A stretch of 64,000 nucleotides of DNA from Methylococcaceae bacterium TMED69 (GCA_002170535.1 NHDW01000001.1:59899-123898); one strand, 5' to 3'; shown: positions 41,689 to 59,430, counted from the first letter of the stretch. Notes: generated from the letters alone by a model not told the origin. Numbers and translations are program-made.

Positions 41689-43737
41689 ATGACATGCATA
41701 TTAGGGATAGACGTTGGAGGTACATTTACCGACTTCGTCTATCATGATCCCTCTGAAGACAAGTTGATAGTTTGGAAAACCCTTTCAACACCATCAGATC
41801 CGGGAAAAGGAATTCTGGACGGCCTACAAAATCAACAGGTTGGCGGAGTAGATTACCTTCGTTTTGGAACAACTATTGCCACAAACGCGATACTTGAACG
41901 AAACGGTGCTACTGTGGCTTTTGTAACGACTTTGGGCTTTAAGGACGTTCCATTTATTCAAAGGGGAAAACGACAGAGTCATTACGATATAAATTGGATT
42001 AAGTCCAAGCCCTTAGTAAAAAGAAGACATTGTTTTGAAATCGACGAACGTATTACGCCTCGTGAAGGGGTCTACAAAGCGCTTGATGAAAATCAAGTCA
42101 GAAAAGTTGCTAGAGCGATAGGTAATGATCAAGAAATAGAAGCAATAGCAATTTGTTTACTTTGTTCTTATGTCATACCTGATCATGAGATTCGGGTAAA
42201 AGAAATTTTTAGAGAAGAAATTCCTGATAAGCCCATTTCTATATCTTATGACTTACTTCCGAAGTGGAAAGAACATGAACGATCTTCAACAACAATAGCT
42301 GATGCTTATTTGAAACCTCTGGTTTCAGAAAATTTGAAGAGGCTTGGTCACAAATTGTCCGAAGCAAAAGATATAAAAAGAGTGTCTGTAATTAAGTCAA
42401 ATGGAGGAGAGGTATCTCTAGAAGCAGCTAAAAATTGTCCAATTCATCTAAGTTTGTCTGGCCCTACCGGGGGAGTCATTGGTGCTCGACAACTTTCAAA
42501 CCTCATTAACATTGATCATATGGTTACGCTTGATATGGGCGGAACATCAACAGATGTTTCGACTGTAGTAGGCAGGACAGAAAGTTTTACAACGAGTTAT
42601 GAAATAGAGTTTGGCATACCAATTCAAATCCCAATGATTGATATAAGAACTATGGGTGCAGGTGGAGGCTCAATAGCGTGGATAGATAAGGGTGGAATGT
42701 TGCAAGTCGGTCCACAAAGTGCCGGCGCGGCTCCCGGCCCAGCCTGTTACGATAGAGGAGGAGAGTTGCCCACAGTGACAGATGCAAATGTGGTTTTAGG
42801 TAGAATTAACCCTCAATTCTTTTTGGGTGGAAATATGAAGTTAAGCGTGGAGAAAGCAAAGCAAGCAGTAAAATCAATAGCTGAACAGTTGGGAGAAACT
42901 TTAGAAAATACTGCGAATGGTATCGTGAAGATAGCTAATAATAATATGGTTGGTGCAACTCGGTTGGTATTGACTGAAAAAGGACTAGACCCAAGAGATT
43001 TTACTATGCTTGCATTTGGTGGAGCCGGCCCCGTGCATATTTCTGACTTGATGCAACTTGCAGGGACACCGAGTGGTATTGTGCCTAATCATCCCGGTCA
43101 ATTCTCCGCTTTTGGATTCACGATGACAGATGCAAGAGTTGATTTAGAACGGACTGCGCCAATGACGTCCAGGTTTTTTAATTTTGACTATGCTAATAGA
43201 GTCTTAAGTGATTTGGTCGCAGAATGCAGCGAGGCATTGGTAGAGCAGGGATACACAGAGAAGATAGAAGTATTGAAAACCCTAGAAATGCGTTATTTTG
43301 GTCAAAATCACGAATTAGAGATTTCATTCTACGATAATGAATTCTCAGAAAATGCAATATCTTCTGTTTGGGATTCTTTTCATGAAGCGCATAAGAAGCG
43401 TTATAATTTCGACATCCCTAACGAGACGATAGAACTAATAAGTATAAAAGTTACCGCTTTAGCTCTCACTCCAAAGCCCCAAATACCAATCATAGCGTAC
43501 TCTGATAAACTTCCATCTCCTTACGAAAAACGTCAAGTTTTTTTCGATAGTGGGATAGCAAGTGCCTCGGTTTACAGAAGAGAAGAGCTTCCAGTCGGTA
43601 AAATTTTTACAGGACCAGCGCTTATAGAAGAAGATGCATCTGTTACAGTTGTTAGTCCTGACATGCCAGTCCTTATTGACAAATACGGAAATATTGTCTT
43701 AGGTAAGTTAGCCGCGGAGTATAAAAACAAATTATGA
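41689..43737 (+). CDS. hyuA: hydantoinase/oxoprolinase family protein, A-type subunit (HyuA-like, ATP-binding)
   Basis: N-terminal GIDVGGTFTDFV, a central DMGGTSTD motif, and the family's ASKHA-fold pattern. 682 aa. Confidence 0.85.
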   Translation: MTCILGIDVGGTFTDFVYHDPSEDKLIVWKTLSTPSDPGKGILDGLQNQQVGGVDYLRFGTTIATNAILERNGATVAFVTTLGFKDVPFIQRGKRQSHYDINWIKSKPLVKRRHCFEIDERITPREGVYKALDENQVRKVARAIGNDQEIEAIAICLLCSYVIPDHEIRVKEIFREEIPDKPISISYDLLPKWKEHERSSTTIADAYLKPLVSENLKRLGHKLSEAKDIKRVSVIKSNGGEVSLEAAKNCPIHLSLSGPTGGVIGARQLSNLINIDHMVTLDMGGTSTDVSTVVGRTESFTTSYEIEFGIPIQIPMIDIRTMGAGGGSIAWIDKGGMLQVGPQSAGAAPGPACYDRGGELPTVTDANVVLGRINPQFFLGGNMKLSVEKAKQAVKSIAEQLGETLENTANGIVKIANNNMVGATRLVLTEKGLDPRDFTMLAFGGAGPVHISDLMQLAGTPSGIVPNHPGQFSAFGFTMTDARVDLERTAPMTSRFFNFDYANRVLSDLVAECSEALVEQGYTEKIEVLKTLEMRYFGQNHELEISFYDNEFSENAISSVWDSFHEAHKKRYNFDIPNETIELISIKVTALALTPKPQIPIIAYSDKLPSPYEKRQVFFDSGIASASVYRREELPVGKIFTGPALIEEDASVTVVSPDMPVLIDKYGNIVLGKLAAEYKNKL

Positions 43738-43946
43738 GATTTTCAGAAAACAAATATTACATAGAGAAATATATAAAATGCGATAACTGTGGAATGCTTA
43801 TCTATGGCGATGGTCTGAAATCTAAAGAATTTTCTAAATTGTTGTTTTGTAGCGATTGGTGTATAGATTGGTATAAATCTAAGTCAAAAGGTAATGAAGA
43901 TCCGCGTATACCGTTGCCTAAAAGTGGAATTCACGAAATCAACTAG
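43734..43946 (+). CDS. 70-aa zinc-ribbon protein, translationally coupled between hyuA and hyuB. Possible small third subunit.
   Basis: Its start ATG overlaps the hyuA stop (ATGA). It has C-x2-C ... C-x3-C (CDNCG ... CSDWC). The hyuB ribosome-binding site AGGAGG follows 8 nt after its stop. Confidence 0.5.
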   Translation: MRFSENKYYIEKYIKCDNCGMLIYGDGLKSKEFSKLLFCSDWCIDWYKSKSKGNEDPRIPLPKSGIHEIN

Positions 43947-43957
43947 GAGGCTAGCAA

Positions 43958-45655
43958 ATGGACATGATAAATATGAATATTATCGAGTCAGCTATGATAG
44001 CGATCGCTAAAGAAATGGGAATTAATGTACAAAAAACAGCGTACTCCACAATCTTTAGTGAAGCTGAAGATTTCACATGCGCATTGGCAAATCGTGCGGG
44101 TGAATTAATTGCCGTGGCCGACTTTTGTCCCTCTCAAATTGGAGGCGTTCCGCTGTTGGTTCGATCCATGTTGAAGGAAATTCCCCTCTCAGAAATTGAT
44201 GAAGGCGATGTGATTGTGCACAATGATCCATACAGAGGTGGGTTGCACACACCAGAACATACAGTATTCAAACCGATCTTTATCGACGGTGAAATCGCGG
44301 CATTTTCTGTATGTGTTGGTCACTTTGTAGAGGTTGGGGGGATGGCTCCAGGGGGGTTTCCGGGTGAAGCCACTGAAATTTTTCATGAAGGTTTGAGGGT
44401 CCCACCTGTGAAAATTATAAAAAAAGGAGTAGATGTTCCAGAGGTCTGGAAAATGATGTTGGCTAATGTTAGAACCCCTAGAGGAAACTATGGTGATATG
44501 AGGGCTCTGATTAGCGGAGTGGATCTAGGGGAAAAAAGACTTCAAGAATTAGTTAAAAAATACGGTAAAGATAAATTTAATACAATAGTTAAAGATCTTC
44601 TAGATTATTCTGAAAGGCGGATGAGAGCGGAAATCTCAGAATTTCCCGACGGTGTTTATCGATTTATTGATAGAGTCGAAGACGACGGTATAGAAGACAA
44701 AGAATATGAAGTGCACGTTGCCGTGCATGTCCAAGGAGATGAGGTGGTTATCGATTACACTGGCTCGTCAAGACAGGCAAAGGGTCCAATTAATGCCACT
44801 TTAGGAGTTGCTTGGTCAGCTGCGTTTAATGCCATGTTACATTTAACAGATCAAAGCATCCCAAAAAATTCTGGTTGTTTCAGACCAATTAGAGTGATCG
44901 CACCAGCTGGAACCGTAATGAATGTTAATTATCCGGGTTCTGAGGTTGGAGGAAACACAGAAACTCATCCTTTGATAGTAGCGGCTATATTTGGCGCGAT
45001 GGTGGAGTGCGTGCCCGATAGGGTTATGGCTTCTGAAGGAACCACTCATGGATGTTTTGTTTTCGGTGGTCATGATGACTACACTGATGAGCCTTTTGGG
45101 GGATTTGATTTCAGCTATGTAGGTTATGGAGGCCGTGCATTTGCTGACGGCAATGATGCAACAGATTCGATTAATGGAAACTGCGCAAACACTCCAATGG
45201 AAGTATTTGAAACAAGGTTTCCTTGGATAGTCGAGGAATATGCGCTAAGGCCAAACTCAGGAGGGGCTGGAAAATTTAGAGGTGGTTTAAGCAATGTGAA
45301 ACAAATGTTATGTACAGGAGGGATGTTAGTCAGCCAGATGACCAATAAGCATAAATTAGGCGCATGGGGCCTAGTTGGCGGAGAGGAAGGTAAAACCGGC
45401 GCAACGTTATTTAAAAAATCAGGTAGCGATAGCTGGGAGACGGCGGTAGAGGCTTATGGTAAAGTCAGCCCAAGTAAGTATTCGAATATTCCAATGCAAC
45501 CAGGAGACCGAGTTCGAGTTTCAGCACCTGGTGGAGGCGGATACGGTCAAGCGTCTGAAAGAGAAAAAAGTGATGTTCTTATGGACGTAAAGGAAGGTTA
45601 TATAAGTAAAGCTGATGCAATAAAATCATACCCAGTCAACGGCAGTGATTTGTAG
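43958..45655 (+). CDS. hyuB: hydantoinase B/oxoprolinase family protein (HyuB-like catalytic subunit)
   Basis: 565 aa with the characteristic HyuB N-terminal region (IAKEMGINVQKTAYSTIFSEAEDF). AGGAGG ribosome-binding site. Confidence 0.85.
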   Translation: MDMINMNIIESAMIAIAKEMGINVQKTAYSTIFSEAEDFTCALANRAGELIAVADFCPSQIGGVPLLVRSMLKEIPLSEIDEGDVIVHNDPYRGGLHTPEHTVFKPIFIDGEIAAFSVCVGHFVEVGGMAPGGFPGEATEIFHEGLRVPPVKIIKKGVDVPEVWKMMLANVRTPRGNYGDMRALISGVDLGEKRLQELVKKYGKDKFNTIVKDLLDYSERRMRAEISEFPDGVYRFIDRVEDDGIEDKEYEVHVAVHVQGDEVVIDYTGSSRQAKGPINATLGVAWSAAFNAMLHLTDQSIPKNSGCFRPIRVIAPAGTVMNVNYPGSEVGGNTETHPLIVAAIFGAMVECVPDRVMASEGTTHGCFVFGGHDDYTDEPFGGFDFSYVGYGGRAFADGNDATDSINGNCANTPMEVFETRFPWIVEEYALRPNSGGAGKFRGGLSNVKQMLCTGGMLVSQMTNKHKLGAWGLVGGEEGKTGATLFKKSGSDSWETAVEAYGKVSPSKYSNIPMQPGDRVRVSAPGGGGYGQASEREKSDVLMDVKEGYISKADAIKSYPVNGSDL

Positions 45656-45664
45656 GTAAAACTT

Positions 45665-46078
45665 ATGAGCAAGCTAACGAAAAGTCTTCATTGGTCAACT
45701 GTGATAGGTGAGAAAATATTGCTCGCTATTATAGGTTTCTTAACTATAGTTGCAGCTGGTCTTGATATTCTCGAAATGTACGACGCTAGAAAAATAGAAC
45801 TGGCCGACCTATTTTTATTATTCATTTATGCCGAAATAATAGGGATGGTTGGTGCATTCTATGCCAGTAGTCGTATTCCAGTTACATTACCAATAATAAT
45901 TGCCATGACCGCGTTATGTAGATTAATTGTGCTCCATAGTAAAGAAATGGACCCGATGATGTTGTTTGCTGAAGCAGGTGCAATTGCTATACTGGCCGCC
46001 GCCGCTTATGTGATGAGCCTTAAAGATAAAATTAGTTTAGAGAAAAGTGAACTAAGAGAACGGGTTTCGAAACAATAA
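45665..46078 (+). CDS. PsiE-like small inner-membrane protein (phosphate-starvation-inducible protein E family)
   Basis: 137 aa with 4 TM helices. Its spacing and residues resemble E. coli PsiE (YAEIIGMV compared with YFEFIALIV, and TALCRLIVLHSK compared with TAIVRLIIVDHK). Confidence 0.5.
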   Translation: MSKLTKSLHWSTVIGEKILLAIIGFLTIVAAGLDILEMYDARKIELADLFLLFIYAEIIGMVGAFYASSRIPVTLPIIIAMTALCRLIVLHSKEMDPMMLFAEAGAIAILAAAAYVMSLKDKISLEKSELRERVSKQ

Positions 46079-46159
46079 GACCGTTAAAATTTTGCCACGA
46101 TTCTGGAAAAGTTTCGCCGAGGAAGACCAGAAAATGTTGAGGAAATAATAGAACCTGCC

Positions 46160-49100
46160 GTGATTACTAAAAAATCCTCAAATAATAAATGGCAATTTTG
46201 GATTGATAGGGGAGGTACATTCACAGACGTTATAGGCGTTTCCCCCGATGACGTTATCCACGTAAAAAAAATCCTCACTGCTCATAAAAATGAATCCTTC
46301 AAGATAATCCTTGAGCATATTTATTCAATTATCCGGTCGACTGATGCTGATGGGCATGTTGATGAAAGTATAGGTGAGATTAAACTTGGTACAACCCTGG
46401 GAACTAATGCTTTATTAGAAAAAAAAGGCGCTAAAACTGTTTTGGTGGTCACAAAAGGTTATAAAGATCTGCTGTCGATAGGACATCAGAACAGAGAATT
46501 GCTGTTCTCATTTAACATAAGGAAAGAAAGTACGTTTTGGGAAAGTGCCGTAGAGGTTGGAGGTAGGATAAGTGCTAGTGGCAAAATTCTTGATAGACTA
46601 GATGAAAATGATGTAGTAAACGTGCTTAAGACCCGCAAAATAAATTCTTTCGACGCTGTCGCGGTCGCTTTGATTAATAGCCATATAAATCCAGCGCATG
46701 AAAATCTTGTTGCTAAGAAATTACAAGATTTGGGTATAGATAATCTCGCTATCTCACATCAAAGCAGCTCAATGTTAGGGTATGTTGATCGTGCAAACAC
46801 CGCTGTCGTTGACGCTTATTTAAAACCACTACTAGAAAAATATGTAGCGGGCATAAAAAAAGAGATAGGTAAAGTAAATTTTCTAATCATGCAATCTCAT
46901 GGTGGACTGGCCGAAGCGGAGAATTTTCAGGGCAGGAATTCCATTTTATCAGGACCTGCCGGCGGAGTGATAGGAGCAGTTAAAACCGCAAGAAATAGAG
47001 GTTTTGATAAAATTATCTGTTTTGATATGGGGGGCACCTCGACCGATGTGGCTCATTATCATGATAACTACGAGTACAGAAGTCAAAGTAAAATTGAAAG
47101 CATCACAATTAACAGTAATTCAATGGACATCCATACGGTGGCCGCAGGAGGAGGTTCTATCGTTGATTTTGACGGCATTAGGTACAAAGTGGGCCCGGAA
47201 TCAGGGGGCTCATATCCTGGTCCTGCCTGTTACGGGAATGGCGGCCCGGTTACAGTCACAGACTGTAACGTTCTGATTGGTATAATCAGACCAGAATATT
47301 TTCCAACTCTGTTCGGTAAAAATAAAAATTCGCCCATAGACAGAGATTTAGTTGTTTCAATATTTGAAAAAATAAAGGATGATTCAAAAAATAAGCTAAA
47401 GGAAGATATGACTATTTACCAAATCGCAGAGGGTTTTTTAGAATTAGCTGTAAAAAAAATGGCCAATGCAATAAAAAAAATATCAATTGATAAAGGTCAT
47501 GATATAAAAAACTATGTTTTAAATTGCTATGGAGGTGCAGCTGCGCAACACTGCTGTGCAGTTGCAGATTCTCTAAGCATTAAAGAAATTTTCATTTCAA
47601 ATAATGCCAGCGTCTTATCTGCTCTTGGGATCGGTCTCTCAGATAGACAAATAATTATTGAAAAATCAATAAACAAAATTCTTTGCGACTCAATTGTTAA
47701 AGAATTGCCAATTTTTGCTGAACGAATAATTAAAGATTCGAAATTAAATTTTAAAAGACAAGAATTAGTAACAAGTGAAATTTTTCTTAAATTAAAGTTT
47801 GAGGACACCTCGGATACTTTTTTAATTCCTTTGAGCGATAGTAACAGTATGAGAGATCAATTTATGCAGTCTTTTAAAAAAAGCTATGGTTTTCTAGAGC
47901 AAAATAAAAACCTTTTTGTTGAGTCAATTTTGGTTAAGACAATAGAAGCATCAAAAATTAATCTTAATGCCTTAAGTTCCAATTCTTCAGAACATGTAAA
48001 TACAAATAAAACTGCACTAGAAAAAAAGGTTTTTGAGGATGGTCAATGGAAAGATATACCTTTCTATCAGCTCGAGGAGCTCTCAAGCCAAAAATCAATA
48101 ATTGGTCCCGCAGTCATAATATCACCAAACAATACGGTATTAATAAAGACAGGTTGGACGTGTGATTGCTACGATAATCATGATTTATTATTGAGAAAAT
48201 TAAATCCTTCAGAGAAAAACAATCTTTTAATTAAATCACAGAATACAAAAATTGCCATGGAGGTAGCAATCTTTGGAAATCAAATAGTCTCTGTTGCGGA
48301 ACAGATGGGAAGTGCTCTTAAAAAGACTGCTACTTCTATCAACATAAAAGAGCGTTTGGACTATTCTTGTGCGATCTTCGATAGTGAAGGGTCATTATTG
48401 GCAAGTGCGCCACATATTCCTGTACATCTGGGCTCTATGAGCGATTGCGTAAAAACGTTAATTGAGAAGATGTCGGGCTCTTTAAAATCAGGTCAAACAT
48501 ATGTTACAAATGATCCGTTTAGAGGGGGAACACACTTACCAGATATTACATGTATTAGTCCAGTTTTTGCTTCTGAAAACCATAGAGCCCCCGTTTTTTT
48601 TGTGGCTTCTCGTGGTCATCACGCTGATATTGGAGGGATAACTCCAGGCTCTATGCCAGCTGAAAGCTTAAATATTCAACAAGAGGGAATACTCTTTAAG
48701 CTGATGATGGCAGTAAAAGATAATGTTTTTAGAGAAAAAGAAATTACCCGTATTCTTTTAGATAGTAATTATCCGGCTAGGAATATTGCCCATAATATTG
48801 CTGACCTAAAGGCGCAAATTGCGGCAAACCAGACAGGGATAAATGAGCTTCAAACTAAATTAATCGAGTTTGGTGAGGCTTCAGTTACTGACCTGTCGAA
48901 ACGTCTTTTAAATCAAGGCGAGCAGTTTGTGAGAAAGATTATACCTGACTTAAATTCAGGTACCTTTGAAGCTTGCCTTGATGAGGGGCAGAAGATTTCT
49001 GTCGATGTGCGCGTGAATAAAAATCAAAAAGAAATAACATTTGATTTCGAAAATACAAATGGGCAGCTTAAAACTAATTTTAACGCGCCTAAATCGATTA

Positions 49101-49792
49101 CTAAGGCGTGTATTATTTACGTTTTACGTTCGCTTATTTGTGATAAAGAAATACCATTAAATGATGGGTGTTTGATTCCAGTCAAATTAAAGATACCTAA
49201 AAAAAGTCTATTAGATCCAAGCTATCCCGCTGCAGTTGTCGCTGGTAATGTTGAAATTAGCCAAAAAATTGTCGATGTTATTTTAGCCGCTCTTGGAATC
49301 CAAGCATTTTCCCAGGGAACGATGAATAATTTATCTTTTGGAAACTCCCGTTTTCAATATTACGAAACAATTTCCGGCGGTTCGGGAGCGGGAAAAAATT
49401 ACGATGGCTCTAGCGCAAGACAAACACATATGACTAATTCACGAATTACAGATCCTGAGGTGATGGAACATCATTTCCCCGTTTTACTGGAGGAATTTTC
49501 AATAAGACAAAATAGCGGAGGAAAAGGTCAATATAATGGAGGAGACGGGGTGTGTAGAAAAATTAAATTTTTTGAGTCAGTTTCTTTATCGATATTATCG
49601 AGTAGTAGGGTATTTCGACCTACCGGATTAGATGGCGGATTGCAAGGATTAGCGGGTAGGAACTTTCATATTGATGAGGCTGGGTGTCATCATGAGTTGC
49701 CAGGATGTGCTCAAATAGAAATTAAGCCCGGTGAATCTATTTTAATTCACACGCCAGGTGGTGGAGGTTTTGGTGAGCCGTCTTTTGATTGA
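46160..49792 (+). CDS. fused hydantoinase/oxoprolinase A+B protein (5-oxoprolinase (ATP-hydrolysing)-like, eukaryote-type single-chain architecture)
   Basis: 1210 aa. The N-terminus (WQFWIDRGGTFTDV) parallels animal OPLAH (FHFAIDRGGTFTDV). It has the DMGGTSTDV motif, and its C-terminal half is HyuB-like. GTG start. Confidence 0.8.
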   Translation: MITKKSSNNKWQFWIDRGGTFTDVIGVSPDDVIHVKKILTAHKNESFKIILEHIYSIIRSTDADGHVDESIGEIKLGTTLGTNALLEKKGAKTVLVVTKGYKDLLSIGHQNRELLFSFNIRKESTFWESAVEVGGRISASGKILDRLDENDVVNVLKTRKINSFDAVAVALINSHINPAHENLVAKKLQDLGIDNLAISHQSSSMLGYVDRANTAVVDAYLKPLLEKYVAGIKKEIGKVNFLIMQSHGGLAEAENFQGRNSILSGPAGGVIGAVKTARNRGFDKIICFDMGGTSTDVAHYHDNYEYRSQSKIESITINSNSMDIHTVAAGGGSIVDFDGIRYKVGPESGGSYPGPACYGNGGPVTVTDCNVLIGIIRPEYFPTLFGKNKNSPIDRDLVVSIFEKIKDDSKNKLKEDMTIYQIAEGFLELAVKKMANAIKKISIDKGHDIKNYVLNCYGGAAAQHCCAVADSLSIKEIFISNNASVLSALGIGLSDRQIIIEKSINKILCDSIVKELPIFAERIIKDSKLNFKRQELVTSEIFLKLKFEDTSDTFLIPLSDSNSMRDQFMQSFKKSYGFLEQNKNLFVESILVKTIEASKINLNALSSNSSEHVNTNKTALEKKVFEDGQWKDIPFYQLEELSSQKSIIGPAVIISPNNTVLIKTGWTCDCYDNHDLLLRKLNPSEKNNLLIKSQNTKIAMEVAIFGNQIVSVAEQMGSALKKTATSINIKERLDYSCAIFDSEGSLLASAPHIPVHLGSMSDCVKTLIEKMSGSLKSGQTYVTNDPFRGGTHLPDITCISPVFASENHRAPVFFVASRGHHADIGGITPGSMPAESLNIQQEGILFKLMMAVKDNVFREKEITRILLDSNYPARNIAHNIADLKAQIAANQTGINELQTKLIEFGEASVTDLSKRLLNQGEQFVRKIIPDLNSGTFEACLDEGQKISVDVRVNKNQKEITFDFENTNGQLKTNFNAPKSITKACIIYVLRSLICDKEIPLNDGCLIPVKLKIPKKSLLDPSYPAAVVAGNVEISQKIVDVILAALGIQAFSQGTMNNLSFGNSRFQYYETISGGSGAGKNYDGSSARQTHMTNSRITDPEVMEHHFPVLLEEFSIRQNSGGKGQYNGGDGVCRKIKFFESVSLSILSSSRVFRPTGLDGGLQGLAGRNFHIDEAGCHHELPGCAQIEIKPGESILIHTPGGGGFGEPSFD

Positions 49793-50220
49793 GCTAATAT
49801 CATCTCCTCGAAATGTTGCATAGTTAAAGTATCAAGCACATTAGAGTGCTCATCAAGAAATTCAACAAACCGATCATTTTTAGACTTATAGTTTACGTAA
49901 ATCAAACTATTTTTTGTGAACTCTTCGTCGTGAGTATCATTGCTAGCTTGAAAGCAATAATCTCCTTGTTCAAAAGTCTCTTTTATGCTGTGGTTGATTA
50001 TTTTTCCTGAGATAACATAAATTCTTGTCTCACAAGTGTGACGATGGGGGCCTGATCTATAACCTGCTTTTATTTTAAAAAGTAATTCCACAGTTTTGTC
50101 GGACCGGTTCAGTGATAAGACTTTTGCCTTGATTTTTTCTTCGCTGTCTATAGCTAACCAGGGAATCTGGCTCGTTTTCCTGTTATTAAATTGTGTATTC
50201 ATATAGCGTTTAACTAACAA
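49747..50220 (-). CDS. cupin-domain protein
   Basis: G-x5-H-x-H cupin motif 1 (GPHRHTCETRIYVISG). 157 aa. Its 3' end overlaps the convergent oxoprolinase gene by 45 nt. Confidence 0.5.
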   Translation of the reverse strand: MLVKRYMNTQFNNRKTSQIPWLAIDSEEKIKAKVLSLNRSDKTVELLFKIKAGYRSGPHRHTCETRIYVISGKIINHSIKETFEQGDYCFQASNDTHDEEFTKNSLIYVNYKSKNDRFVEFLDEHSNVLDTLTMQHFEEMILAQSKDGSPKPPPPGV

Positions 50221-50463
50221 TTAAGTTTATTTATCGTATCATACTCTGGATAATAACTAATTTGATTTTTAAAAAAGGAAGGTTTTTTGGTTTCTCTTTG
50301 GCGAATGTGTTTGAAAACGCGACGTCTTTAGGGTGGTTGATTACAACCTATAGATAAAAATTTTAAAAATATTTGGCATTTTCGTGCTCTCTCGGTGAAA
50401 ATAAAGAATCGTGTAGGGATATTTGCGTGGATTTAATTACAGATCAACAGAATGGAGTGAAAA

Positions 50464-51897
50464 ATGGGAGATTTGAGACACAATAGTTTTAAAACTATGA
50501 TGAATGATGTTGTCGATTTTGGTAGCTGCTGTGAATGTGGCAGTTGTGTGGCAGCTTGTCCTCATAACGTAATAGAAATGGTCGAGGGAAAGCCAAAACA
50601 AACAGCAAAAGCATCGGCTCCATCTGACTTTTGTGGCGTAAGTGAGGGTGCAGGTTGCGATGTTTGCGCGACAGTGTGCCCGAGACTATGGCCTAGGGAG
50701 ACCCATTTGAGACAAGCAGTTTTTTCAAATGACAGGAAGGAATCATGGGAAGGCGTCTTTGGGGTTTTTCGTAATATCTTTGTAGCTAAATCGAAAGACC
50801 CTATAATATCAGAAAATGGACAGGATGGAGGCGTTGTCACAGCGCTGTTGGATTGGGCATATGAGACCGGTAACATAGATGGCGCGATAGTATCGGCGGT
50901 TGGTGAAGACGATCAACCATGCTTTCCTACGCCTAAGGTCGCGAAGGATAAAGAGTCAATTCGAAATAGCTCAGGTAGCTGGTATACCTATTGCCCGAAT
51001 AATCTAGCGTTAGAGCAAGCCGCTGAAGAGGATCTCAAATCGTTGGGGTTCGTGGGAGTACCGTGTCAAATCACTCCTTTAAGGAAAATGGAAAAAATGG
51101 ACCCTAGTTTTCTCGTCTCTGAAAAAAAGAAACCAAAAATTGTTGGAAGACAACGTGAATTCTTGAGAGGAATGAGTGATAGGGTAAATTTTAGTATAGG
51201 ACTGTTTTGCACTGAAGTATTCCGGCCCGAACTCATGACGGAAAAAATTGAAAAAGAAATGGGAATCCCCCTTTCCGATGTTAAGCAATTCAACGTAAAA
51301 GGTGAGGTTCTCATTTATAAAAAAAACGGAGACGTTGCTACCATACCGCTTGCGGAGGCCATGGAACAATACCAAAGACCTGAATGTGCTCATTGTGGCG
51401 ACTTTTCCGCAGAACTGGCTGATATAGCATGCGGTGGTGTTGGTACTGAGCGCGCAACGATTGTTGTCATTAGGACCGAAAAAGGCGAGAAGATTTGGAA
51501 ACAGTTCGAAGCCTCGGGTCGAGTATCCGTTGAACCGATTGAAGAAAATAAAAGAGCTTGGAATATTCTCTACAGGTTGTCGAAACGTCAGAGAGCTAGG
51601 GTGCCCGAAGGTCCAGAGAGAGGTGGCGTCCAAAGCCATGAGGAATATGATCCATGGGGTGATAACGATTTGATTGAAAAAAAGCTTGCTGCCGGAAAGA
51701 AATCTGATGAGGAAAAAATGGCATGTTTAGATACCGCTTTTGCGGGAGAGCCTCGTCCGAGTCAATCAATTGAATTTATAGCTGGAAGCCCAATTCCAAA
51801 TGACCAACCCCTTAGCGAAGACGGCAAGAAAAAAAGACCTTTGCCTTTACCAAAAGAATTAGGCGGTCATTCTCCATTATTTGATCAAGGTAAATGA
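50464..51897 (+). CDS. coenzyme F420 hydrogenase/dehydrogenase beta-subunit-family flavoprotein (FrhB/FdhB-like) with an N-terminal 2x[4Fe-4S] ferredoxin domain and a roughly 100-aa low-complexity C-terminal tail
   Basis: Two C-x2-C-x2-C-x3-CP motifs (CECGSCVAACP, CDVCATVCP). The FrhB-like core includes ISENGQDGGVVTALLDWAYETGNIDGAIV. The tail is rich in K, E, D and P. Confidence 0.7.
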   Translation: MGDLRHNSFKTMMNDVVDFGSCCECGSCVAACPHNVIEMVEGKPKQTAKASAPSDFCGVSEGAGCDVCATVCPRLWPRETHLRQAVFSNDRKESWEGVFGVFRNIFVAKSKDPIISENGQDGGVVTALLDWAYETGNIDGAIVSAVGEDDQPCFPTPKVAKDKESIRNSSGSWYTYCPNNLALEQAAEEDLKSLGFVGVPCQITPLRKMEKMDPSFLVSEKKKPKIVGRQREFLRGMSDRVNFSIGLFCTEVFRPELMTEKIEKEMGIPLSDVKQFNVKGEVLIYKKNGDVATIPLAEAMEQYQRPECAHCGDFSAELADIACGGVGTERATIVVIRTEKGEKIWKQFEASGRVSVEPIEENKRAWNILYRLSKRQRARVPEGPERGGVQSHEEYDPWGDNDLIEKKLAAGKKSDEEKMACLDTAFAGEPRPSQSIEFIAGSPIPNDQPLSEDGKKKRPLPLPKELGGHSPLFDQGK

Positions 51898-52010
51898 ATG
51901 AGTTGACACAATTTGACGAAAAACTGATAATTAACTGTTTATAATACTTTAATTAATTTCACTCGTATTACATGTAAATTAATTTAATCATATACATCAG
52001 GAGCAAAAAG

Positions 52011-52427
52011 ATGTCATTAAAAGGGAGCAAAACAGAGGAAAACCTCAAAGCCGCATTTGCGGGTGAGTCGCAAGCAAATAGACGTTATCTCTACTTCGCA
52101 CAAAAGGCAGATGTAGAGGGATACAATGATGTTTCGACTGTATTTAGGTCAACAGCGGAAGGCGAGACCGGTCATGCCCACGGCCACCTAGAATATTTAG
52201 AAGCAGTTGGAGATCCTGCTACAGGAGAACCAATAGGTACTACGGAGCAGAACTTAAAAGCTGCAATAGCCGGTGAAACCCACGAATATACCGATATGTA
52301 TCCTGGTATGGCGAAGGCTGCTAAAGAAGAAGGTTTTGACGAAATCGCTGATTGGTTCGAGACTCTCGCAAAAGCTGAGCGTTCTCACGCCAACAGATTC
52401 CAAAAAGCCTTAGATTCTATATCTTAA
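52011..52427 (+). CDS. rubrerythrin-family diiron protein without a rubredoxin domain (erythrin-like)
   Basis: Two E-x2-H diiron motifs ([10 protein letters not shown] and ERSHANRF) plus conserved Glu residues ([11 protein letters not shown] and ETHEYTDMY). 138 aa. Confidence 0.8.
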
Positions 52428-52486
52428 AATAATCGAGCTTAGGGTAGGTTTTCTTTTAGAAGCCTACCCTTCTCTTCGCTTGTCTT

Positions 52487-53830
52487 ATGTCATACAAATC
52501 TTTAAAAGAGGGTAGCCTAGATGCGCCCACAAGACACGCCATCGATTGGAAATCAGATGATTTTTATGATGAGGACAGGATCAATTCTGAGTTAGAGAGA
52601 GTATTCGATATTTGCCATACTTGCCGTCGATGTGTGAGTCTCTGTAATTCCTTTCCCTCGCTATTTGACTTAATAGACGAAAGCGAGACCATGGAAGTTG
52701 ATGGTGTTTCAAAAGCAGACTACAAAAAAGTAGTTGATGAATGTTATCTTTGTGATATTTGTTATTTAACCAAATGCCCTTATGTCCCTCCGCACGAATG
52801 GAACGTAGACTTCCCTCATCTTATGTTAAGAGCGAAAGCAGCTAGTTTTAGAAAAGGTGAGACAAGCTTGCGAGACAAGATAATTACGTCTACTAAAGTA
52901 GTGGGAAACTTAGCAGGACTGCCGGTAGTCGCGCCAATCGTTAATGTTTTAAATAAAAATTCCGTAACAAGAAACGTTTTGGAGAAAACTTTAGGTATTC
53001 ATAAAGAAGCTCCACTACCCAAATATCATTCAAATAAATTTTTAAAACAAAAAGGTTTAACGAAAAACCCAAATCTCGATAGAACTTCTCAAGATGAAAA
53101 AATAGCAGTTTTTGTAACGTGTTATGGGAACGTAAATTCTCCGCGTTTAGTTGAGGATATGGTGTCAGTTTTTGAACTCAGTGGCCTTAGCGTTTCAATA
53201 ATTAATAGTAATGAATGTTGTGGAATGCCGAAATATGAGTTGGGGGATTTACCTTCGGTAGCAGAATTTGCCGAACGCAACCTAAAGAAAATGAAACCTT
53301 TCATTGAAGCCGATTATAAGATAACCGCGCCAATACCCAGTTGTGTATTGATGTACAGGAAAGAATTGCCCTTAATGTTCCCCGACGACGAGAATATTAA
53401 AAACCTATCAGAAGCAATGGTTGATCCTTTTGAGTTGCTAATGAACCTACATAAACAAGGAAAATTTAATACAAACTTTATTAACCAATTGGGAAACGTC
53501 GCTTACCATGCGCCTTGCCATCAGAGGGTGCAGAATATTGGCCCAAAAACCAAAGAAGTTTTGGAGTTGATCCCTGGTACGAAAGTTTCACTTATCGAAC
53601 GATGTTCAGGGCATGATGGCACTTACGCTGTGAAAAAGGAAAGCTATCCTAGCGCTAAAAAAATATGTCGGCCAGTGGTTTCCGCAATCGATAAAAGTGA
53701 AACCGACCATTTTGTAAGTGATTGTCCTATGGCCTTTGATCTAATAGAACAAGGAACTCGTAAAAAGTCTGAATTCTCGTCAGCATTTGGCGTTTTAAGA
53801 TATGCTTATGGAGTGCAAAATGAAAAATAA
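52487..53830 (+). CDS. (Fe-S)-binding oxidoreductase with two ferredoxin-type clusters and two CCG domains (HdrD/GlpC/GlcF-like)
   Basis: CHTCRRCVSLC and CYLCDICYLTKCPY (4Fe-4S motifs). Cys-rich CCG motifs CCGMP and CHQRV...C. Confidence 0.75.
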   Translation: MSYKSLKEGSLDAPTRHAIDWKSDDFYDEDRINSELERVFDICHTCRRCVSLCNSFPSLFDLIDESETMEVDGVSKADYKKVVDECYLCDICYLTKCPYVPPHEWNVDFPHLMLRAKAASFRKGETSLRDKIITSTKVVGNLAGLPVVAPIVNVLNKNSVTRNVLEKTLGIHKEAPLPKYHSNKFLKQKGLTKNPNLDRTSQDEKIAVFVTCYGNVNSPRLVEDMVSVFELSGLSVSIINSNECCGMPKYELGDLPSVAEFAERNLKKMKPFIEADYKITAPIPSCVLMYRKELPLMFPDDENIKNLSEAMVDPFELLMNLHKQGKFNTNFINQLGNVAYHAPCHQRVQNIGPKTKEVLELIPGTKVSLIERCSGHDGTYAVKKESYPSAKKICRPVVSAIDKSETDHFVSDCPMAFDLIEQGTRKKSEFSSAFGVLRYAYGVQNEK

Positions 53831-54410
53831 TAAACTTGAAATTCAGGACCTGCAAAGTTTAGAAGATTATGCGAGTTGCCGGACTGAGTTTCGTAAAAAC
53901 GTACTAGAACACAAAAAAGCAAGGCGGGTCGATCTAGGGGATCATATCTCATTGTATTTTGAAAGTGCTCTTACTATTCAATACCAAATACAGGAGATGT
54001 TGAGGATAGAAAAAATTTTTGAAAAAGATGCTATTCGAGAAGAATTCGATGCTTACATTCCGTTGATCCCTGATCAGTTTAATCTGAAAGCCACGATGAT
54101 GATTGAGTATGTCGATGAAGAAATCCGGAAAACAGAGCTTGTAAAATTAAATGGGATCGAGTCAAGGATTTGGATGCAGTGCGGTCCTAACCACCCTATT
54201 TATGCTATCGCAGATGAGGATTTGGAACGTAGTGATGGTACAAAAACGTCAGCTGTTCACTTTCTAAGATTTAATGTTTCTAAAGAAGCTAGACGATCTA
54301 TATTAGGGAGGGAACAAGTTTTGTTTGGTATTGACCATCCAAATTATCAAGTGCAACAAGTCACCGTGTCTAGTAGTACTATTACTTCACTTGGGGACGA
54401 TCTCAGATAG
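53820..54410 (+). CDS. DUF3501-family protein
   Basis: About 196 aa. The ATG at 53820 has a GGAG ribosome-binding site 7 nt upstream and overlaps the previous stop by 11 nt (the track ORF starts at 53802). The family call is from memory of DUF3501 being a conserved neighbour of rubrerythrin and CCG-protein genes. Confidence 0.45.
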   Translation: MKNNKLEIQDLQSLEDYASCRTEFRKNVLEHKKARRVDLGDHISLYFESALTIQYQIQEMLRIEKIFEKDAIREEFDAYIPLIPDQFNLKATMMIEYVDEEIRKTELVKLNGIESRIWMQCGPNHPIYAIADEDLERSDGTKTSAVHFLRFNVSKEARRSILGREQVLFGIDHPNYQVQQVTVSSSTITSLGDDLR

Positions 54411-54415
54411 TTTGT

Positions 54416-55414
54416 TTACTTAACTTTCTTAGATTGGTACTTCTTCAAACTATCTAAAGTTTGTGAGAGCATGGTAGGAAAATCCCTCAACTTGACTCCG
54501 AGACTGTCCCGCCTTGCGAAATCAAATGCCGTAGGCTTAGCTGATTTAGTGTCTAGGTATTTAGGCGTGATCATATCGGGTATTTGTCTTTCACACTCTT
54601 TGTAAATGTCCTCCCAATGCAAGCTTTCATAGACCCCAAAAAATCTTCCTTCGCAAGAATCGCATTCAAAAGCGTTTAAGAATAATTCCGCGAGGTCTTC
54701 GGTATGTATCATTGATATCGAGTCATCCGGACATATTGCATGTCTTGGTTCACCGCCGTTCAATAGTCTATCTAACCAAGCATAAGGATTATGTCTTAGA
54801 TGACCGGGTATTAAGAGTTCCCCGTAGAGCCCCGTGGGTAGTAAGATACATAATCTGATATTATTTTCTTCGCAAAATTTTATTGCCCGTTTTTCCATTA
54901 CGGTCTTAGCAGCGGATGTAAATTTCTTATTTTTTATTTGTGTTGACTCGTCAGACCAATGATCAATTTCATTCTTTTCTTCTATATGGATATTAGGGTT
55001 GGTACTCGCAGTTGATGAACAAATCAAAACGTTCCTGATTTTGTTTCGTTTTGCAGAATGTAAAATATTTAAGCATCCTTCGACTGTCGGAGCCAGTATT
55101 TTACTTCTTCCCTCTTCCTCGGAAAGTTGATTTGCTGGTATACCTTCAGTAGATTTATAAATGGGAATTAGACAGCAAATAAATAGCGCGTCAACGTCAG
55201 CTAGTGCCTCGTCAAATGTCTCGCTATTATTCATATTTGCACTGAAGAGAGTCAAATTTTGACTGTTAGGAAAATTTTTAATGTATTTTATCTTGTCTTC
55301 ATCAGAGGCGTTCCTTGCAGTACCATTAACTAAATATCCTTTAGAAAGCGCTTTTTTCGCCAAGTTCGCTCCAACTAGTCCTGTCACTCCTACTATGCAA
55401 ATTTTTTTCGTCAT
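54416..55414 (-). CDS. NAD(P)-dependent epimerase/dehydratase-family (extended SDR) reductase
   Basis: N-terminal ICIVGVTGLVGANL Rossmann motif and a Y-x3-K region. 332 aa. Confidence 0.7.
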   Translation of the reverse strand: MTKKICIVGVTGLVGANLAKKALSKGYLVNGTARNASDEDKIKYIKNFPNSQNLTLFSANMNNSETFDEALADVDALFICCLIPIYKSTEGIPANQLSEEEGRSKILAPTVEGCLNILHSAKRNKIRNVLICSSTASTNPNIHIEEKNEIDHWSDESTQIKNKKFTSAAKTVMEKRAIKFCEENNIRLCILLPTGLYGELLIPGHLRHNPYAWLDRLLNGGEPRHAICPDDSISMIHTEDLAELFLNAFECDSCEGRFFGVYESLHWEDIYKECERQIPDMITPKYLDTKSAKPTAFDFARRDSLGVKLRDFPTMLSQTLDSLKKYQSKKVK

Positions 55415-55547
55415 GTTTGCTTTTTTGATACTATAAAATCTATAGCTTACATAAATTAAATAATATCAACAATATAAAATTTTTTGCTTAAAATGTAGCC
55501 ATAATTTTATTTAAATAAATCTTCACGCTGTTTATAGGGGCAAGCAT

Positions 55548-56174
55548 ATGAAAAGAGTACTATACATCGAATCTTCTCCACGAAAAGCTAGGTCTCATTC
55601 TATAGAGGTAGCCAGAGAGTTTTTAAAAGAGTATGAAAGGCTCAATCCAGAAGACGTAATAGACACATTGGATTTATGGTCTATGACTTTACCTCCTTTT
55701 AGTGGCGAGGTAATCGATACTAAATACCGTATAATGCATGGAGAAAAAGTTAGCCAGGGGAAGAAATCAGAGTGGAACAAAATTGTAGAACTATTTGATC
55801 AATTTAATTCTGCGGATAAATATGTATTTTCAGTTCCAATGTGGAACTTTGGTATACCATATAGATTAAAGCATTATATTGATTTGATAACTCAGCCAAG
55901 CCTTGCCTGGTCTTTTACACCAGATGAGGGATATAGAGGTTTGGTAGTTGGCAAAGTAGTAATTTTGTATTCTTCTGGCGGTGATTATACTGAGGCTAAT
56001 GGATTGGGTGAATTAGATCATCAGAAAAAGCCCTTTGAGAATTGGTTGGGTTTTATCGGATTAGGAGATTTTAAAATAATTAATGTTTCGCCAACCTTAG
56101 GTGCGCCCGAGGCAGTCAAACAGATAGTCGAATGTGCTAAGACAAATGCAATAGATACAGCGCAACACTTTTGA
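55548..56174 (+). CDS. azoR: FMN-dependent NADH-azoreductase
   Basis: Colinear with E. coli AzoR. Matching segments: VLYIESSPR, PMWNFGIPYRLKHYIDLI (compare PMYNFNISTQLKNYFDLV) and LGFIGLGDFKII. Confidence 0.8.
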   Translation: MKRVLYIESSPRKARSHSIEVAREFLKEYERLNPEDVIDTLDLWSMTLPPFSGEVIDTKYRIMHGEKVSQGKKSEWNKIVELFDQFNSADKYVFSVPMWNFGIPYRLKHYIDLITQPSLAWSFTPDEGYRGLVVGKVVILYSSGGDYTEANGLGELDHQKKPFENWLGFIGLGDFKIINVSPTLGAPEAVKQIVECAKTNAIDTAQHF

Positions 56175-56936: not shown

Positions 56937-57137
56937 TTATCGCATCTGACCGTCTTTCTCGGTACCCCCAAACCATTTCGCACCTCTGTAAACTCCAGAT
57001 GTCTGTTGTTGGTCAGACTGCTGCTGAGCTTGGTGTTTTACTCCCCTGTAAACGTAACCGTTTACGGGTTTGTCTGCACTCTGGTTTTGCTGAGCATTCT
57101 GGTTTACTTTAGCGCCTCTATAATAGTTATCCGTCAT
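56937..57137 (-). CDS. small basic Q/N-rich repeat protein (YRGAK three times)
   Basis: 66 aa with three spaced repeats of YRG[AV]K. A GGAGG Shine-Dalgarno sequence lies 7 nt upstream of the ATG. It is followed by the bidirectional terminator. Confidence 0.55.
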   Translation of the reverse strand: MTDNYYRGAKVNQNAQQNQSADKPVNGYVYRGVKHQAQQQSDQQQTSGVYRGAKWFGGTEKDGQMR

Positions 57138-57447: not shown

Positions 57448-57960
57448 TTAAGAATGGCGGTATCTTCGATGCCATTCAAAACCTTGCCAAGTTGTAAGCT
57501 CTCGGGGCTTTATTTTGAACGTAGTACATGGCTCGGAATTAACGGATTTTCTATATTCATTGGCTTTTTCGCCAAGATAACGTGGTCCTGTATGATTTTC
57601 ACCTATTTGATTCCACACTGATTTCTGCCCATTTTCTAGAAAAGGTCCAACCCCTTTTTCGATGATTTCAGCTTCACCGTCGCAAATTACTTTTCTGATT
57701 GGCGGTACCGGCTCGTCAATCACTAAAGACACTCTTGGATCATCTTCTAGGAATTCAGCCCATCGAGATTTTTTCCTTCCGACTATCCAAAAATCAGAAC
57801 CATCCCAGTGGTACCAAACTGGAACAACAAAAGGCGAACCATCGGACTTTATACAGGCTAGTCTAGCGATCCAAGGTTCTGATAAAAATTCATCTATCTC
57901 TTGTTTAGACATTCTTCCAATTTTATCGCCTCGCCAGGAAGTGTTATTATTTTTTGTCAT
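57448..57960 (-). CDS. pyridoxamine 5'-phosphate oxidase-like FMN-binding split-barrel protein
   Basis: Motif ARLACIKSDGSPFVVPVWYHWDG, typical of the PNPOx-like family. 170 aa. Confidence 0.6.
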   Translation of the reverse strand: MTKNNNTSWRGDKIGRMSKQEIDEFLSEPWIARLACIKSDGSPFVVPVWYHWDGSDFWIVGRKKSRWAEFLEDDPRVSLVIDEPVPPIRKVICDGEAEIIEKGVGPFLENGQKSVWNQIGENHTGPRYLGEKANEYRKSVNSEPCTTFKIKPRELTTWQGFEWHRRYRHS

Positions 57961-59430
57961 TTAAAATACCTCAAAATATTCCCGGTGTTCCCAGTCGGTC
58001 ACGTAGGATTCAAATCTTTGGATCTCACTAGATTTTAGTTGTATAAAGTAATTTATAAACTGTTTAGTAAATTTTTGTTTAAATAATTCATTCCTTTCCA
58101 AAGCTTCAAGCGATTCATTTAGATTGCGGGGTAGCAATGTGTTTTCGGATTGATAAGGCTTACTATCAGGTTTCCCCGGGTTAGTTTCGTTTTTGATTCC
58201 GTCTAATCCAGCAGCTAGTTGAGATGCCATATATAAATATGGATTTGCACATGGCTCGCCCGCTCTATTTTCAATATGTGTTCCTGGATCATTAGGCCCT
58301 CCTAAAACCCTAATAAGTGCTCCTCTATGTTCAGAAGCCCAATTTATATAATTAGGCGCGAATGAATTAGGAGCATATCGCTTATACCCATTGATAGTGG
58401 GTGTCGAAAAAGCTGTTGCCGCACTCGTATGCTCTAAGATGCCTCCCATAAAATTCATTCCGATATCAGAAAGAGGGGCTTTAGATTTTGAATAATTAAC
58501 GAAAAGATTATTTTTTCTAGATTCGTCAAAAATGGATTGATGGAGGTGCCATCCGGATGAAAAAAAGTTCGGAAGTCCCGGTCTAGTCATAAAACTTGCA
58601 TGCAACTCGTTTCGTCTACAAATCTGTTTTACAGCCGTGCGAAATAATAGAAGATTGTCAGCTGCCTGAAGGCCATCCCGCGGGTCAAATGTAAACTCAC
58701 ATTGACCTGGACCCCATTCATCTTCAATAGTTCTTAAAGGTAGTCCGAGTTCCTCGATATTTTGCTGTAGTATGTCTAAGATAGGAGCGATTTCATCTTG
58801 TCTATCTTCCGTTAAATATTGAAATCCGTGGGCTATCATATTGACTTTCGGTGGCTCGGGAGGCCAGCCGGATTGCTCGGGCTGCAACATTTTGTCTATC
58901 AGTTTCGTTATGTAAAATTCGATCTCGATCCCAACAACGTACGTCCATTGTTTAGTTTTAAGTTCTTTCAATATTCGCTTAAGTATATTTCGTGTATCAA
59001 ATGGACATGGCTTGCCTGATTGGAAATGCATGTCTGATAATATCCAACCTGTTTTATGAGCCCACGGTAGGATTCTAAAGCTTGTAGGGTCAGGTACTAA
59101 AATGGCATCAGGTCCCCCAGAAAGTTCGGGCATTCCGATACCTGCATCTGGCTCAAACATCGGCGCAAACATATTATTTGTAGTATCAAAGAACAAAGTG
59201 GCGGTCTGAAAATCGATGCCGTTATCCAAAGACTGTATAAAGTCTTTTGCCATAACATTCTTTCCTCTGACTATACCGTGCTGGTCTCCCCAAGCGATTC
59301 TAATCGTTTGAAGATTATCTTTTTTTACTTGCTCAATTATTTCAAGACTTAAACGCTTCATGTCTTGACTCCAAAGCCCGTGCTCCTCGATAAAATTGGT
59401 TTTTCCAACACTACCCTTGTCTAGTGACAT
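57961..59430 (-). CDS. glutamine synthetase-family enzyme (gamma-glutamyl-amine synthetase, PuuA/GlnA3-like)
   Basis: 489 aa. Has a GS catalytic-domain pattern (GIEIEFY, NxS..A.TAF, the Glu/Arg ATP site). AGGAGG ribosome-binding site. Confidence 0.7.
   Translation of the reverse strand: MSLDKGSVGKTNFIEEHGLWSQDMKRLSLEIIEQVKKDNLQTIRIAWGDQHGIVRGKNVMAKDFIQSLDNGIDFQTATLFFDTTNNMFAPMFEPDAGIGMPELSGGPDAILVPDPTSFRILPWAHKTGWILSDMHFQSGKPCPFDTRNILKRILKELKTKQWTYVVGIEIEFYITKLIDKMLQPEQSGWPPEPPKVNMIAHGFQYLTEDRQDEIAPILDILQQNIEELGLPLRTIEDEWGPGQCEFTFDPRDGLQAADNLLLFRTAVKQICRRNELHASFMTRPGLPNFFSSGWHLHQSIFDESRKNNLFVNYSKSKAPLSDIGMNFMGGILEHTSAATAFSTPTINGYKRYAPNSFAPNYINWASEHRGALIRVLGGPNDPGTHIENRAGEPCANPYLYMASQLAAGLDGIKNETNPGKPDSKPYQSENTLLPRNLNESLEALERNELFKQKFTKQFINYFIQLKSSEIQRFESYVTDWEHREYFEVF

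Follow-up and report, generated by a model that had tools for sequence, protein, structure and literature searches.

We analyzed a 64,000-nt stretch of DNA from the metagenome-assembled genome (MAG) of Methylococcaceae bacterium TMED69 (GCA_002170535.1 NHDW01000001.1:59899-123898), referred to below as the window, with positions counted from its first nucleotide. The subject of this work is a redox locus at 50464-54410 with four open reading frames (ORFs) on the plus strand: a gene for a protein resembling the beta subunit of the coenzyme F420-dependent hydrogenase (the frhB-like gene, frhBL), a rubrerythrin (Rbr) gene (rbr), a gene for an iron-sulfur (Fe-S) protein with two ferredoxin-type motifs and two CCG domains (rfo), and a DUF3501 gene (Table 1). 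A preliminary description of this DNA had placed four genes in a row at these coordinates, and all four ORFs were recovered. Its domain assignments agreed with Pfam for all four genes, and the short intergenic regions that it reported in front of rbr and of rfo (which it called HdrD-like) are 113 and 59 nt long. The neighboring azoreductase and SDR genes that it mentioned were also found; the upstream flank contains a fused hydantoinase/oxoprolinase gene and a cupin gene, and a VTT/DedA protein gene belongs to the downstream flank. The same description took the four genes for one redox cluster. We concluded, with a probability of about 80%, that the region is composed of two independent functional units made neighbors by one lineage-specific rearrangement. 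In the second unit (unit B, 52011-54410) we recognize an ordinary rbr-rfo-DUF3501 operon, known from the literature as the "aerobic-type rubrerythrin system". For the first unit (unit A, the frhB-like gene) we infer a transcription unit of its own and a plug-in F420 oxidoreductase gene. This reading rests on gene content, conservation patterns and structural homology, from which we infer cofactors, the direction of electron flow, a peroxidase role and separate transcription.

Homologues of the FrhB-like protein number more than 1000; identity to it is 61-95% among the best 120, most of which come from gammaproteobacterial MAGs. A scan of species-representative genomes yielded 80 loci, each with flanking DNA of 10 kb or less per side, and neighbors were counted in the 49 whose flanks both reach at least 5 kb. 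The rubrerythrin trio adjoins the FrhB-like gene in two loci, L012 (95% identical to the window) and L013 (91%), that is, in 2/80 of all and 2/49 of the well-flanked loci. The partners found elsewhere are different: a gene for a TIGR03617 F420-dependent luciferase-like oxidoreductase (LLM) is a neighbor of the FrhB-like gene in 22 of the 49 loci, a gene for F0 synthase (CofG/CofH/FbiC) in 14 and a gene for CofC, CofD or CofE in 11; altogether, 36 of the loci have at least one F420-linked neighbor. Over all 80 loci, the LLM gene was downstream and convergent in 33/33 cases. Its product scored 391 bits against TIGR03617 (cut-off 278), and CofG, CofH, CofC, CofD and CofE all exceeded their curated cut-offs. 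The L072-type loci have the order cofG-cofH-frhBL-fbiB (C-terminal domain)-cofD-cofC-cofE, a complete F420 biosynthesis operon present in a MAG group labelled "bacterium" or Nitrospinota, and Spongiibacter pelagi carries cofC-fbiC-frhBL. In many Gammaproteobacteria the family is paired with the convergent LLM gene; examples of loci of the family are L072 (7763-14499), L024 (9974-12478) and L043 (6722-11407). In another clade (10 loci), frhBL and the LLM gene flank a HiPIP gene. A cytochrome c-soxY-soxZ-soxA-soxB block separates frhBL from the convergent LLM gene in L007, L009 and L014-L021 (e.g., L007 9644-13424), and these loci form the clade nearest to the FrhB-like gene of the window. Other window genes with counterparts beside FrhB-like genes of other loci were sought, and those found are all of generic families (a CoA-transferase 14 kb away and hydantoinase). 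From its F420-linked neighbors, the FrhB-like family is a candidate for the enzyme that charges or discharges F420 in aerobic bacteria; in the literature searched we found no description of bacterial FrhB-like proteins linked to F420.

In a neighbor-joining tree, the FrhB-like proteins of the window, L012, L013 and L092 form one long-branch clade, with L014 as its sister, inside an otherwise LLM-linked clade. Because the trio-adjacent clade is nested in this way, the bringing together of the FrhB-like gene and the trio is a single derived event in one marine lineage. Within the window's clade the whole neighborhood is syntenic (hydantoinase, cupin, frhBL, trio, SDR, azoreductase and VTT genes), so the persistence of the adjacency weighs no more than ordinary synteny. 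Between the window and L092, the four gene products share 72-99% amino acid identity and synonymous sites are saturated, so that the ratio of nonsynonymous to synonymous substitution rates allows at most a qualitative statement, namely that purifying selection on all four genes appears to be strong. The view of the four genes as one cluster therefore did not hold, since their linkage is confined to the narrow lineage of the window and the partners differ elsewhere. The preliminary description had itself remarked that a conserved, unrelated partner of the FrhB-like gene in other genomes would indicate mere adjacency here; the F420-dependent LLM oxidoreductase and the F420 biosynthesis genes are such partners.

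The trio was surveyed by a metagenome scan with a DUF3501 alignment, which gave 80 loci; two further loci brought the set to 82 DUF3501 loci from other organisms. The trio is complete in 41 of the 82, with rbr, rfo and DUF3501 in this order on one strand in 41/41, and rfo lies upstream of DUF3501 in 65/82. FrhB-like, cof and LLM genes are absent from all 41 complete trio loci, in which the sequence 5' of rbr exceeds 2 kb in 24 cases and 5 kb in 17. Co-occurrence of the four genes in other genomes is thus limited to 2/80 species-level FrhB-like loci and 0/41 complete trios, and the association is as uncommon as the preliminary description had supposed. Neighbor clustering of the 82 loci for a fourth conserved partner returned only CNP1-like and ProB genes, whose recurrence is attributed to lineage synteny. 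An OxyR-like LysR gene (best NCBIfam match OxyR, below cut-off) occurs near the trio in about 5-7 loci and is divergently upstream of it in several; a phmmer search for an OxyR-like regulator found none in the 64-kb window.

The preliminary description had called the trio a recurrent and uncharacterised gene neighborhood, which is correct: it is published as RBR-RFO-DUF3501 (PMC5114695, PMC7050145). It was described as a co-localised and co-occurring module, with all three genes in 185 of 4461 finished genomes and with DUF3501-RFO fusions in Nitrosomonas (Cardenas et al., 2016; PMC5114695), and the same "protein trio" is targeted to the mitochondria of several protists (Gray et al., 2020; PMC7050145). 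The copy in the window matches the published system in its three proteins, their order and strand, the Rbr without rubredoxin domain, the ferredoxin-type motifs and CCG domains of RFO, and the coupling of DUF3501 to rfo. It differs in nothing essential, being found in a low-GC marine MAG lineage of gammaproteobacterial type and downstream of an FrhB-like gene. The earlier picture of anaerobe building blocks misplaced in an aerobe is misleading, as the families of the two units are typically found in aerobic Proteobacteria.

Table 1. Features of the redox locus and its surroundings (window coordinates).
Feature	Position	Strand	Remarks
frhB-like gene (unit A)	50464-51897	+	477 aa, cytoplasmic product; Pfam
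Promoter-like site (TTGACA, 17 nt, GATAAT)	51903-51931	+	frhB-like/rbr spacer; consensus match only
Conserved 5' block of rbr (TATAATACTTTA..TTTCACTCGTAT..TACA..TAAATTAA)	51940-51984	+	alignment of four lineages
rbr	52011-52427	+	138 aa; Pfam Rubrerythrin
Stem-loop, 12-bp stem GGGUAGGUUUUC/GAAGCCUACCC	52441-52470	+	just 3' of the rbr stop codon
rfo	52487-53830	+	447 aa; two CxxCxxCxxx(x)C motifs and Pfam CCG x2
DUF3501 gene	53802-54410	+	202 aa; Pfam DUF3501, E 5e-66
SDR/epimerase	54416-55414	-	3' flank
Azoreductase	55548-56174	+	3' flank
PNPOx/PPOX-class gene	57448-57960	-	170 aa; TIGR03618 54 bits vs cut-off 79

Pfam assigned FrhB_FdhB_N (E-value 1e-19, 70.6 bits; cut-off 22), FrhB_FdhB_C (1e-35, 123.1 bits; cut-off 23.3) and Fer4 domains to the FrhB-like protein. 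Its layout consists of a 2x[4Fe-4S] ferredoxin domain (residues ~17-75), an FrhB-type core (~98-378) of the flavin adenine dinucleotide (FAD)/[4Fe-4S] F420-oxidoreductase kind, and a tail (~380-477); 16 Cys are invariant in the family alignment. None of the four proteins encoded by the locus reaches an equivalog cut-off in NCBIfam (FrhB 181 vs 331.5 bits; rubrerythrin 141 vs 200; GlpC 227.5 vs 278), and the FrhB-like protein falls below the FpoF cut-off as well. In the PDB, the best sequence matches were 8RIU_B (E 2e-48) and 8RJA_E (4e-48), followed by FrhB and Fsr (range 1e-38 to 1e-48), whereas the F420-independent HCAR matched at 1e-9 only. A Foldseek comparison with a structural model of moderate confidence (mean predicted local distance difference test, pLDDT, 71.8) gave target-normalised TM-scores of 0.72-0.82 overall and of 0.72-0.73 for 8RIU_B and 8RJA_E. 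Judged by its domains and modelled fold, the protein appears to be an F420 oxidoreductase module of the FrhB/FdhB superfamily. An identity as the hydrogenase subunit FrhB was considered and rejected on its TIGR03289 score (the FrhB value given above) and the lack of adjacent frhA or frhG; hydrogenase genes were found neither in the window flanks nor in the 80 related FrhB-like loci.

The two closest solved homologues are ACDS zeta (8RIU_B) and FwdI (8RJA_E) of the ethane-oxidising archaeon Candidatus Ethanoperedens, in which a ferredoxin domain with two [4Fe-4S] clusters docks the module to the Fe-S chain of the partner, the F420-reductase domain holds FAD and one [4Fe-4S], and a C-terminal extension follows (Lemaire et al., 2024; PMC11493965). 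The FrhB-like protein of the window has the same three-part layout, and for this reason it is read as a putative plug-in F420:Fe-S oxidoreductase; FrhB, the N-terminal half of Fsr and FpoF are further related modules. It differs from ACDS zeta and FwdI in that its gene stands alone in aerobic bacteria and lacks a CODH, Fwd, hydrogenase or sulfite-reductase partner, and in that its tail is longer (~100 aa) and has a conserved Pro-rich motif of its own. The motif (AGxPIPxDPG...G.KRKLPPP...GGASP; tail at 51604-51894) is kept across 17 diverse orthologues. Archaeal FrhB has no such tail, which may act as a docking peptide; the model is of moderate confidence over most of it (pLDDT ~40-70) and better in two short helices. 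In the proposed reaction, the protein would exchange hydride between F420 and FAD, and single electrons would travel through the one core cluster and the two [4Fe-4S] clusters of the ferredoxin domain to or from an Fe-S partner or ferredoxin. The nearest functional precedent is the soluble FpoF, a ferredoxin:F420 oxidoreductase in Methanosarcina.

The rbr product contains a Rubrerythrin domain (Pfam E 8e-32) and is without a rubredoxin domain. It is ~85% identical to the Burkholderia pseudomallei Rbr (BpRbr; 4DI0/9ONM) in a gapless alignment over the full length (E 7e-75), and it matches sulerythrin (1J30) at E 4e-54 and the classical Desulfovibrio vulgaris Rbr at 3e-29. All seven di-iron ligands, as read from the alignment, are present (E19, E52, H55, E89, E92, E123 and H126). 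E52 and E123 align with E53 and E124 of BpRbr, the double mutant of which lost metal binding (PMC12154734). By sequence, therefore, the product belongs with the aerobic-type, rubredoxin-less, sulerythrin-like rubrerythrins of the sulerythrin/BpRbr clade. Its likeness to BpRbr and sulerythrin lies in sequence and metal ligands, and its difference from them in the host.

RFO has 15 invariant Cys across 49 sequences, arranged as two ferredoxin-type motifs (43/46/49/53 and 86/89/92/97) followed by four and three Cys in the CCG half (212/244/245/286 and 344/373/413). A clear transmembrane helix was not found in it, and a PDB sequence search returned no matching chain. The best NCBIfam match is GlpC, with which RFO shares the layout of two ferredoxin-like 4Fe-4S motifs and then two CCG domains. 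Assignment as GlpC was nevertheless rejected, since RFO scores below the cut-offs of both models (NF008369 227.5 vs 278 bits; TIGR03379 153 vs 280) and its neighbors are rbr and DUF3501, not glpAB. HdrB-type double non-cubane sites use ten Cys. An HdrD/HdrB-type identity was likewise rejected: the CCG half of RFO has only seven invariant Cys, its second motif is CSGH and not CCG, and there are no hdr genes nearby.

The DUF3501 gene is translationally coupled to rfo. The overlap of its start with the preceding stop, already pointed out in the preliminary description, is 29 nt for the listed coordinates. Since M7 is where the homologues start, translation probably begins at 53820, which would shorten the overlap to 11 nt. 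The conserved positions of the protein include acidic residues and His, and no Cys. A crystal structure of the family from B. pseudomallei (3FJV, structural genomics) carries no assigned function, and the match therefore names the DUF3501 family and does not explain it.

For the trio as a whole, family knowledge suggests that the di-iron rubrerythrin would reduce hydrogen peroxide (H2O2) to water. As this Rbr has no rubredoxin domain, it would be re-reduced through the Fe-S clusters of RFO, and DUF3501, found as a fusion with RFO in some bacteria, may serve as an accessory or adaptor subunit of RFO. Electron donation from RFO to Rbr for peroxide reduction is a hypothesis in the literature (PMC5114695, PMC12154734), and the replacement of the rubredoxin domain by operon partners is likewise offered as a hypothesis only in a 2025 preprint on BpRbr (PMC12154734).

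The junction between the two units was examined in the four lineages of the clade. A block of ~45 nt in front of rbr aligns in 4/4 lineages (window, L012/L004, L013 and L092), and the remaining spacer varies in length and content. This block (51940-51984) may serve the trio as a -10 element, an operator or a leader. The spacer also holds a sigma-70-like, promoter-like site that agrees with the consensus at 11/12 positions and is the best match across 49700-55600. A Fur/PerR-type box was sought 5' of rbr, and the best match (11/19 positions) was no better than background. In L013 the frhBL-rbr spacer is ~240 nt, and in L092 an 85-aa gene with a weak GIY-YIG/MUG113-like match (3637-3894, plus strand) is inserted between frhBL and rbr, which shows that the junction tolerates insertions.

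The other spacer of the locus, between rbr and rfo, contains a stem-loop with a minimum free energy of -22.1 kcal/mol (z = -4.6; 0/200 shuffles were as stable). We searched the first 90 nt past the rbr stop codon in the trio loci from other organisms (L095-L176), with segments inside rfo as controls. A hairpin of -15 kcal/mol or lower follows rbr in 38 of the 41 trio loci and is present in 12 of the 41 controls (Wilcoxon p = 6e-8); a T-run accompanies the post-rbr hairpin in 10/41. The hairpin is probably an intra-operon attenuator or mRNA-stabilising element. Partial termination or 3'-end stabilisation at this site would leave Rbr more abundant than RFO and DUF3501, and the conservation suggests an attenuator that sets the ratio of Rbr to RFO/DUF3501.

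Several observations weigh against our reading of two independent units. The frhB-like gene and rbr are kept adjacent on the same strand in at least four diverged lineages (window, L012, L013 and L092), and no terminator is predicted after the frhB-like gene, so read-through into rbr may occur. Among the 49 well-flanked FrhB-like loci, 13 have no F420-linked neighbor, and phmmer found neither CofC/D/E/G/H nor FbiC nor a TIGR03617 LLM across the 64-kb window, so that F420 use in the source organism is deduced from orthologues only. Lastly, for no bacterial member is there a biochemical demonstration that the trio acts as a peroxidase, or of what RFO and DUF3501 do (PMC5114695, PMC12154734). The retained adjacency and the absence of a predicted terminator would suit a four-gene module in which the FrhB-like protein was recruited as a rubrerythrin reductase, with electrons passing from F420H2 (or ferredoxin) to RFO, Rbr and H2O2. 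The closest solved homologues dock their F420 module onto the Fe-S chain of a partner through the N-terminal ferredoxin domain, and RFO offers such a chain; moreover, the usual downstream LLM partner has been lost in the trio-adjacent clade, at least locally. One may thus picture the capture of an F420-reductase-like module, no longer paired with its LLM partner, as electron input of the rubrerythrin operon directly downstream of it, giving an H2O2 reductase chain from the FrhB-like protein via RFO to Rbr driven by F420H2 or ferredoxin. Such a link would be of interest, as it would supply a reductant to aerobic-type rubrerythrin, for which the published work names none (PMC5114695, PMC12154734). 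We consider the four-gene module very unlikely, however, and give the capture scenario just as little credence. The link exists in the two FrhB-like loci named above and in no complete trio from elsewhere, and hundreds of genomes and mitochondria run the trio without an FrhB-like partner. Unrelated flanking genes are equally conserved, by which plain synteny explains the persistence of the adjacency; the junction accommodates an unrelated inserted gene in L092 and the long spacer in L013; and a conserved 5' region and a promoter-like site belong to the trio itself.

Each of the two units could also be other than we propose. The FrhB-like protein might be F420-independent, that is, a ferredoxin- or NAD(P)H-linked flavo-Fe-S reductase for another substrate, like the FrhB-family members HCAR and BciB, or a relic left without its F420 context in this lineage. 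The window without F420 biosynthesis or TIGR03617 LLM genes fits such a role, as do the long branch of its clade, the scores under every curated NCBIfam F420-enzyme cut-off and the presence of F420-independent enzymes in the FrhB family (e.g., HCAR, 5DQR). This is nonetheless quite unlikely: F420 enzymes match far better than HCAR does (E 1e-38 to 1e-48 vs 1e-9), orthologues of 60-70% identity reside in F420 operons or beside the F420-dependent LLM gene in 36/49 well-flanked loci, and the family-invariant residues are all retained under what appears to be strong purifying selection. In addition, the PPOX-class gene 3 kb away has an F420-dependent subfamily as its best, sub-cut-off match (Table 1) and may be a second F420-linked gene. 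As to the trio, its primary function might lie not in peroxide reduction but in metal handling, in iron storage or repair, or in the activity of a di-iron oxidase/oxygenase served by a dedicated reductase; DUF3501 would then be a metallochaperone. The pre-formed metal site of BpRbr is promiscuous for Fe, Mn and Co (PMC12154734), the conserved acidic and His residues of DUF3501, without conserved Cys, would suit metal binding of this kind, and the bacterial trio is without any enzymology. Against these roles stand the measured peroxidase activity of sulerythrin and the reported induction of BpRbr under oxidative stress (both cited in PMC12154734), together with the OxyR-like regulators that adjoin some trios, and we regard a primary function other than peroxidase as unlikely. 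We therefore retained the reading of a standard rubrerythrin operon beside an independent FrhB-like gene.

Two further arrangements were noted in the window. Just downstream of a glutamine-synthetase-like gene (57961-59430), a glutamine riboswitch (RF01739, 57285-57404, minus strand; 45.7 bits vs gathering score 35) is directly followed by a 66-aa ORF (56937-57137, minus strand) with repeated YRG(A/V)K motifs and a faint DUF4278 match in relatives. The arrangement resembles a glutamine riboswitch followed by a peptide like the glutamine synthetase-inactivating factors, in a MAG of proteobacterial type. Upstream of the redox locus, at 41689-49792 on the plus strand, two hydantoinase/oxoprolinase-type systems adjoin each other with a PsiE-like gene between them: a split caprolactamase-like alpha/beta pair (41689-43737 and 43958-45655) and a fused 1210-aa HyuA-HyuB protein (46160-49792). 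All scores of both systems are far under the curated cut-offs.

The supposed four-gene "anaerobe-style" module is another copy of a published operon beside an unrelated gene, and it should not enter the literature as a new system. For the trio, the hairpin between rbr and rfo, which is nearly universal, suggests a design for a high ratio of Rbr to reductase; this is relevant to attempts at reconstitution. For the FrhB-like family, a 2021 review of F420 treated the question of why Proteobacteria make this cofactor as open and did not mention FrhB. The FrhB-like/LLM pair is a concrete candidate for how such bacteria may charge or discharge F420.

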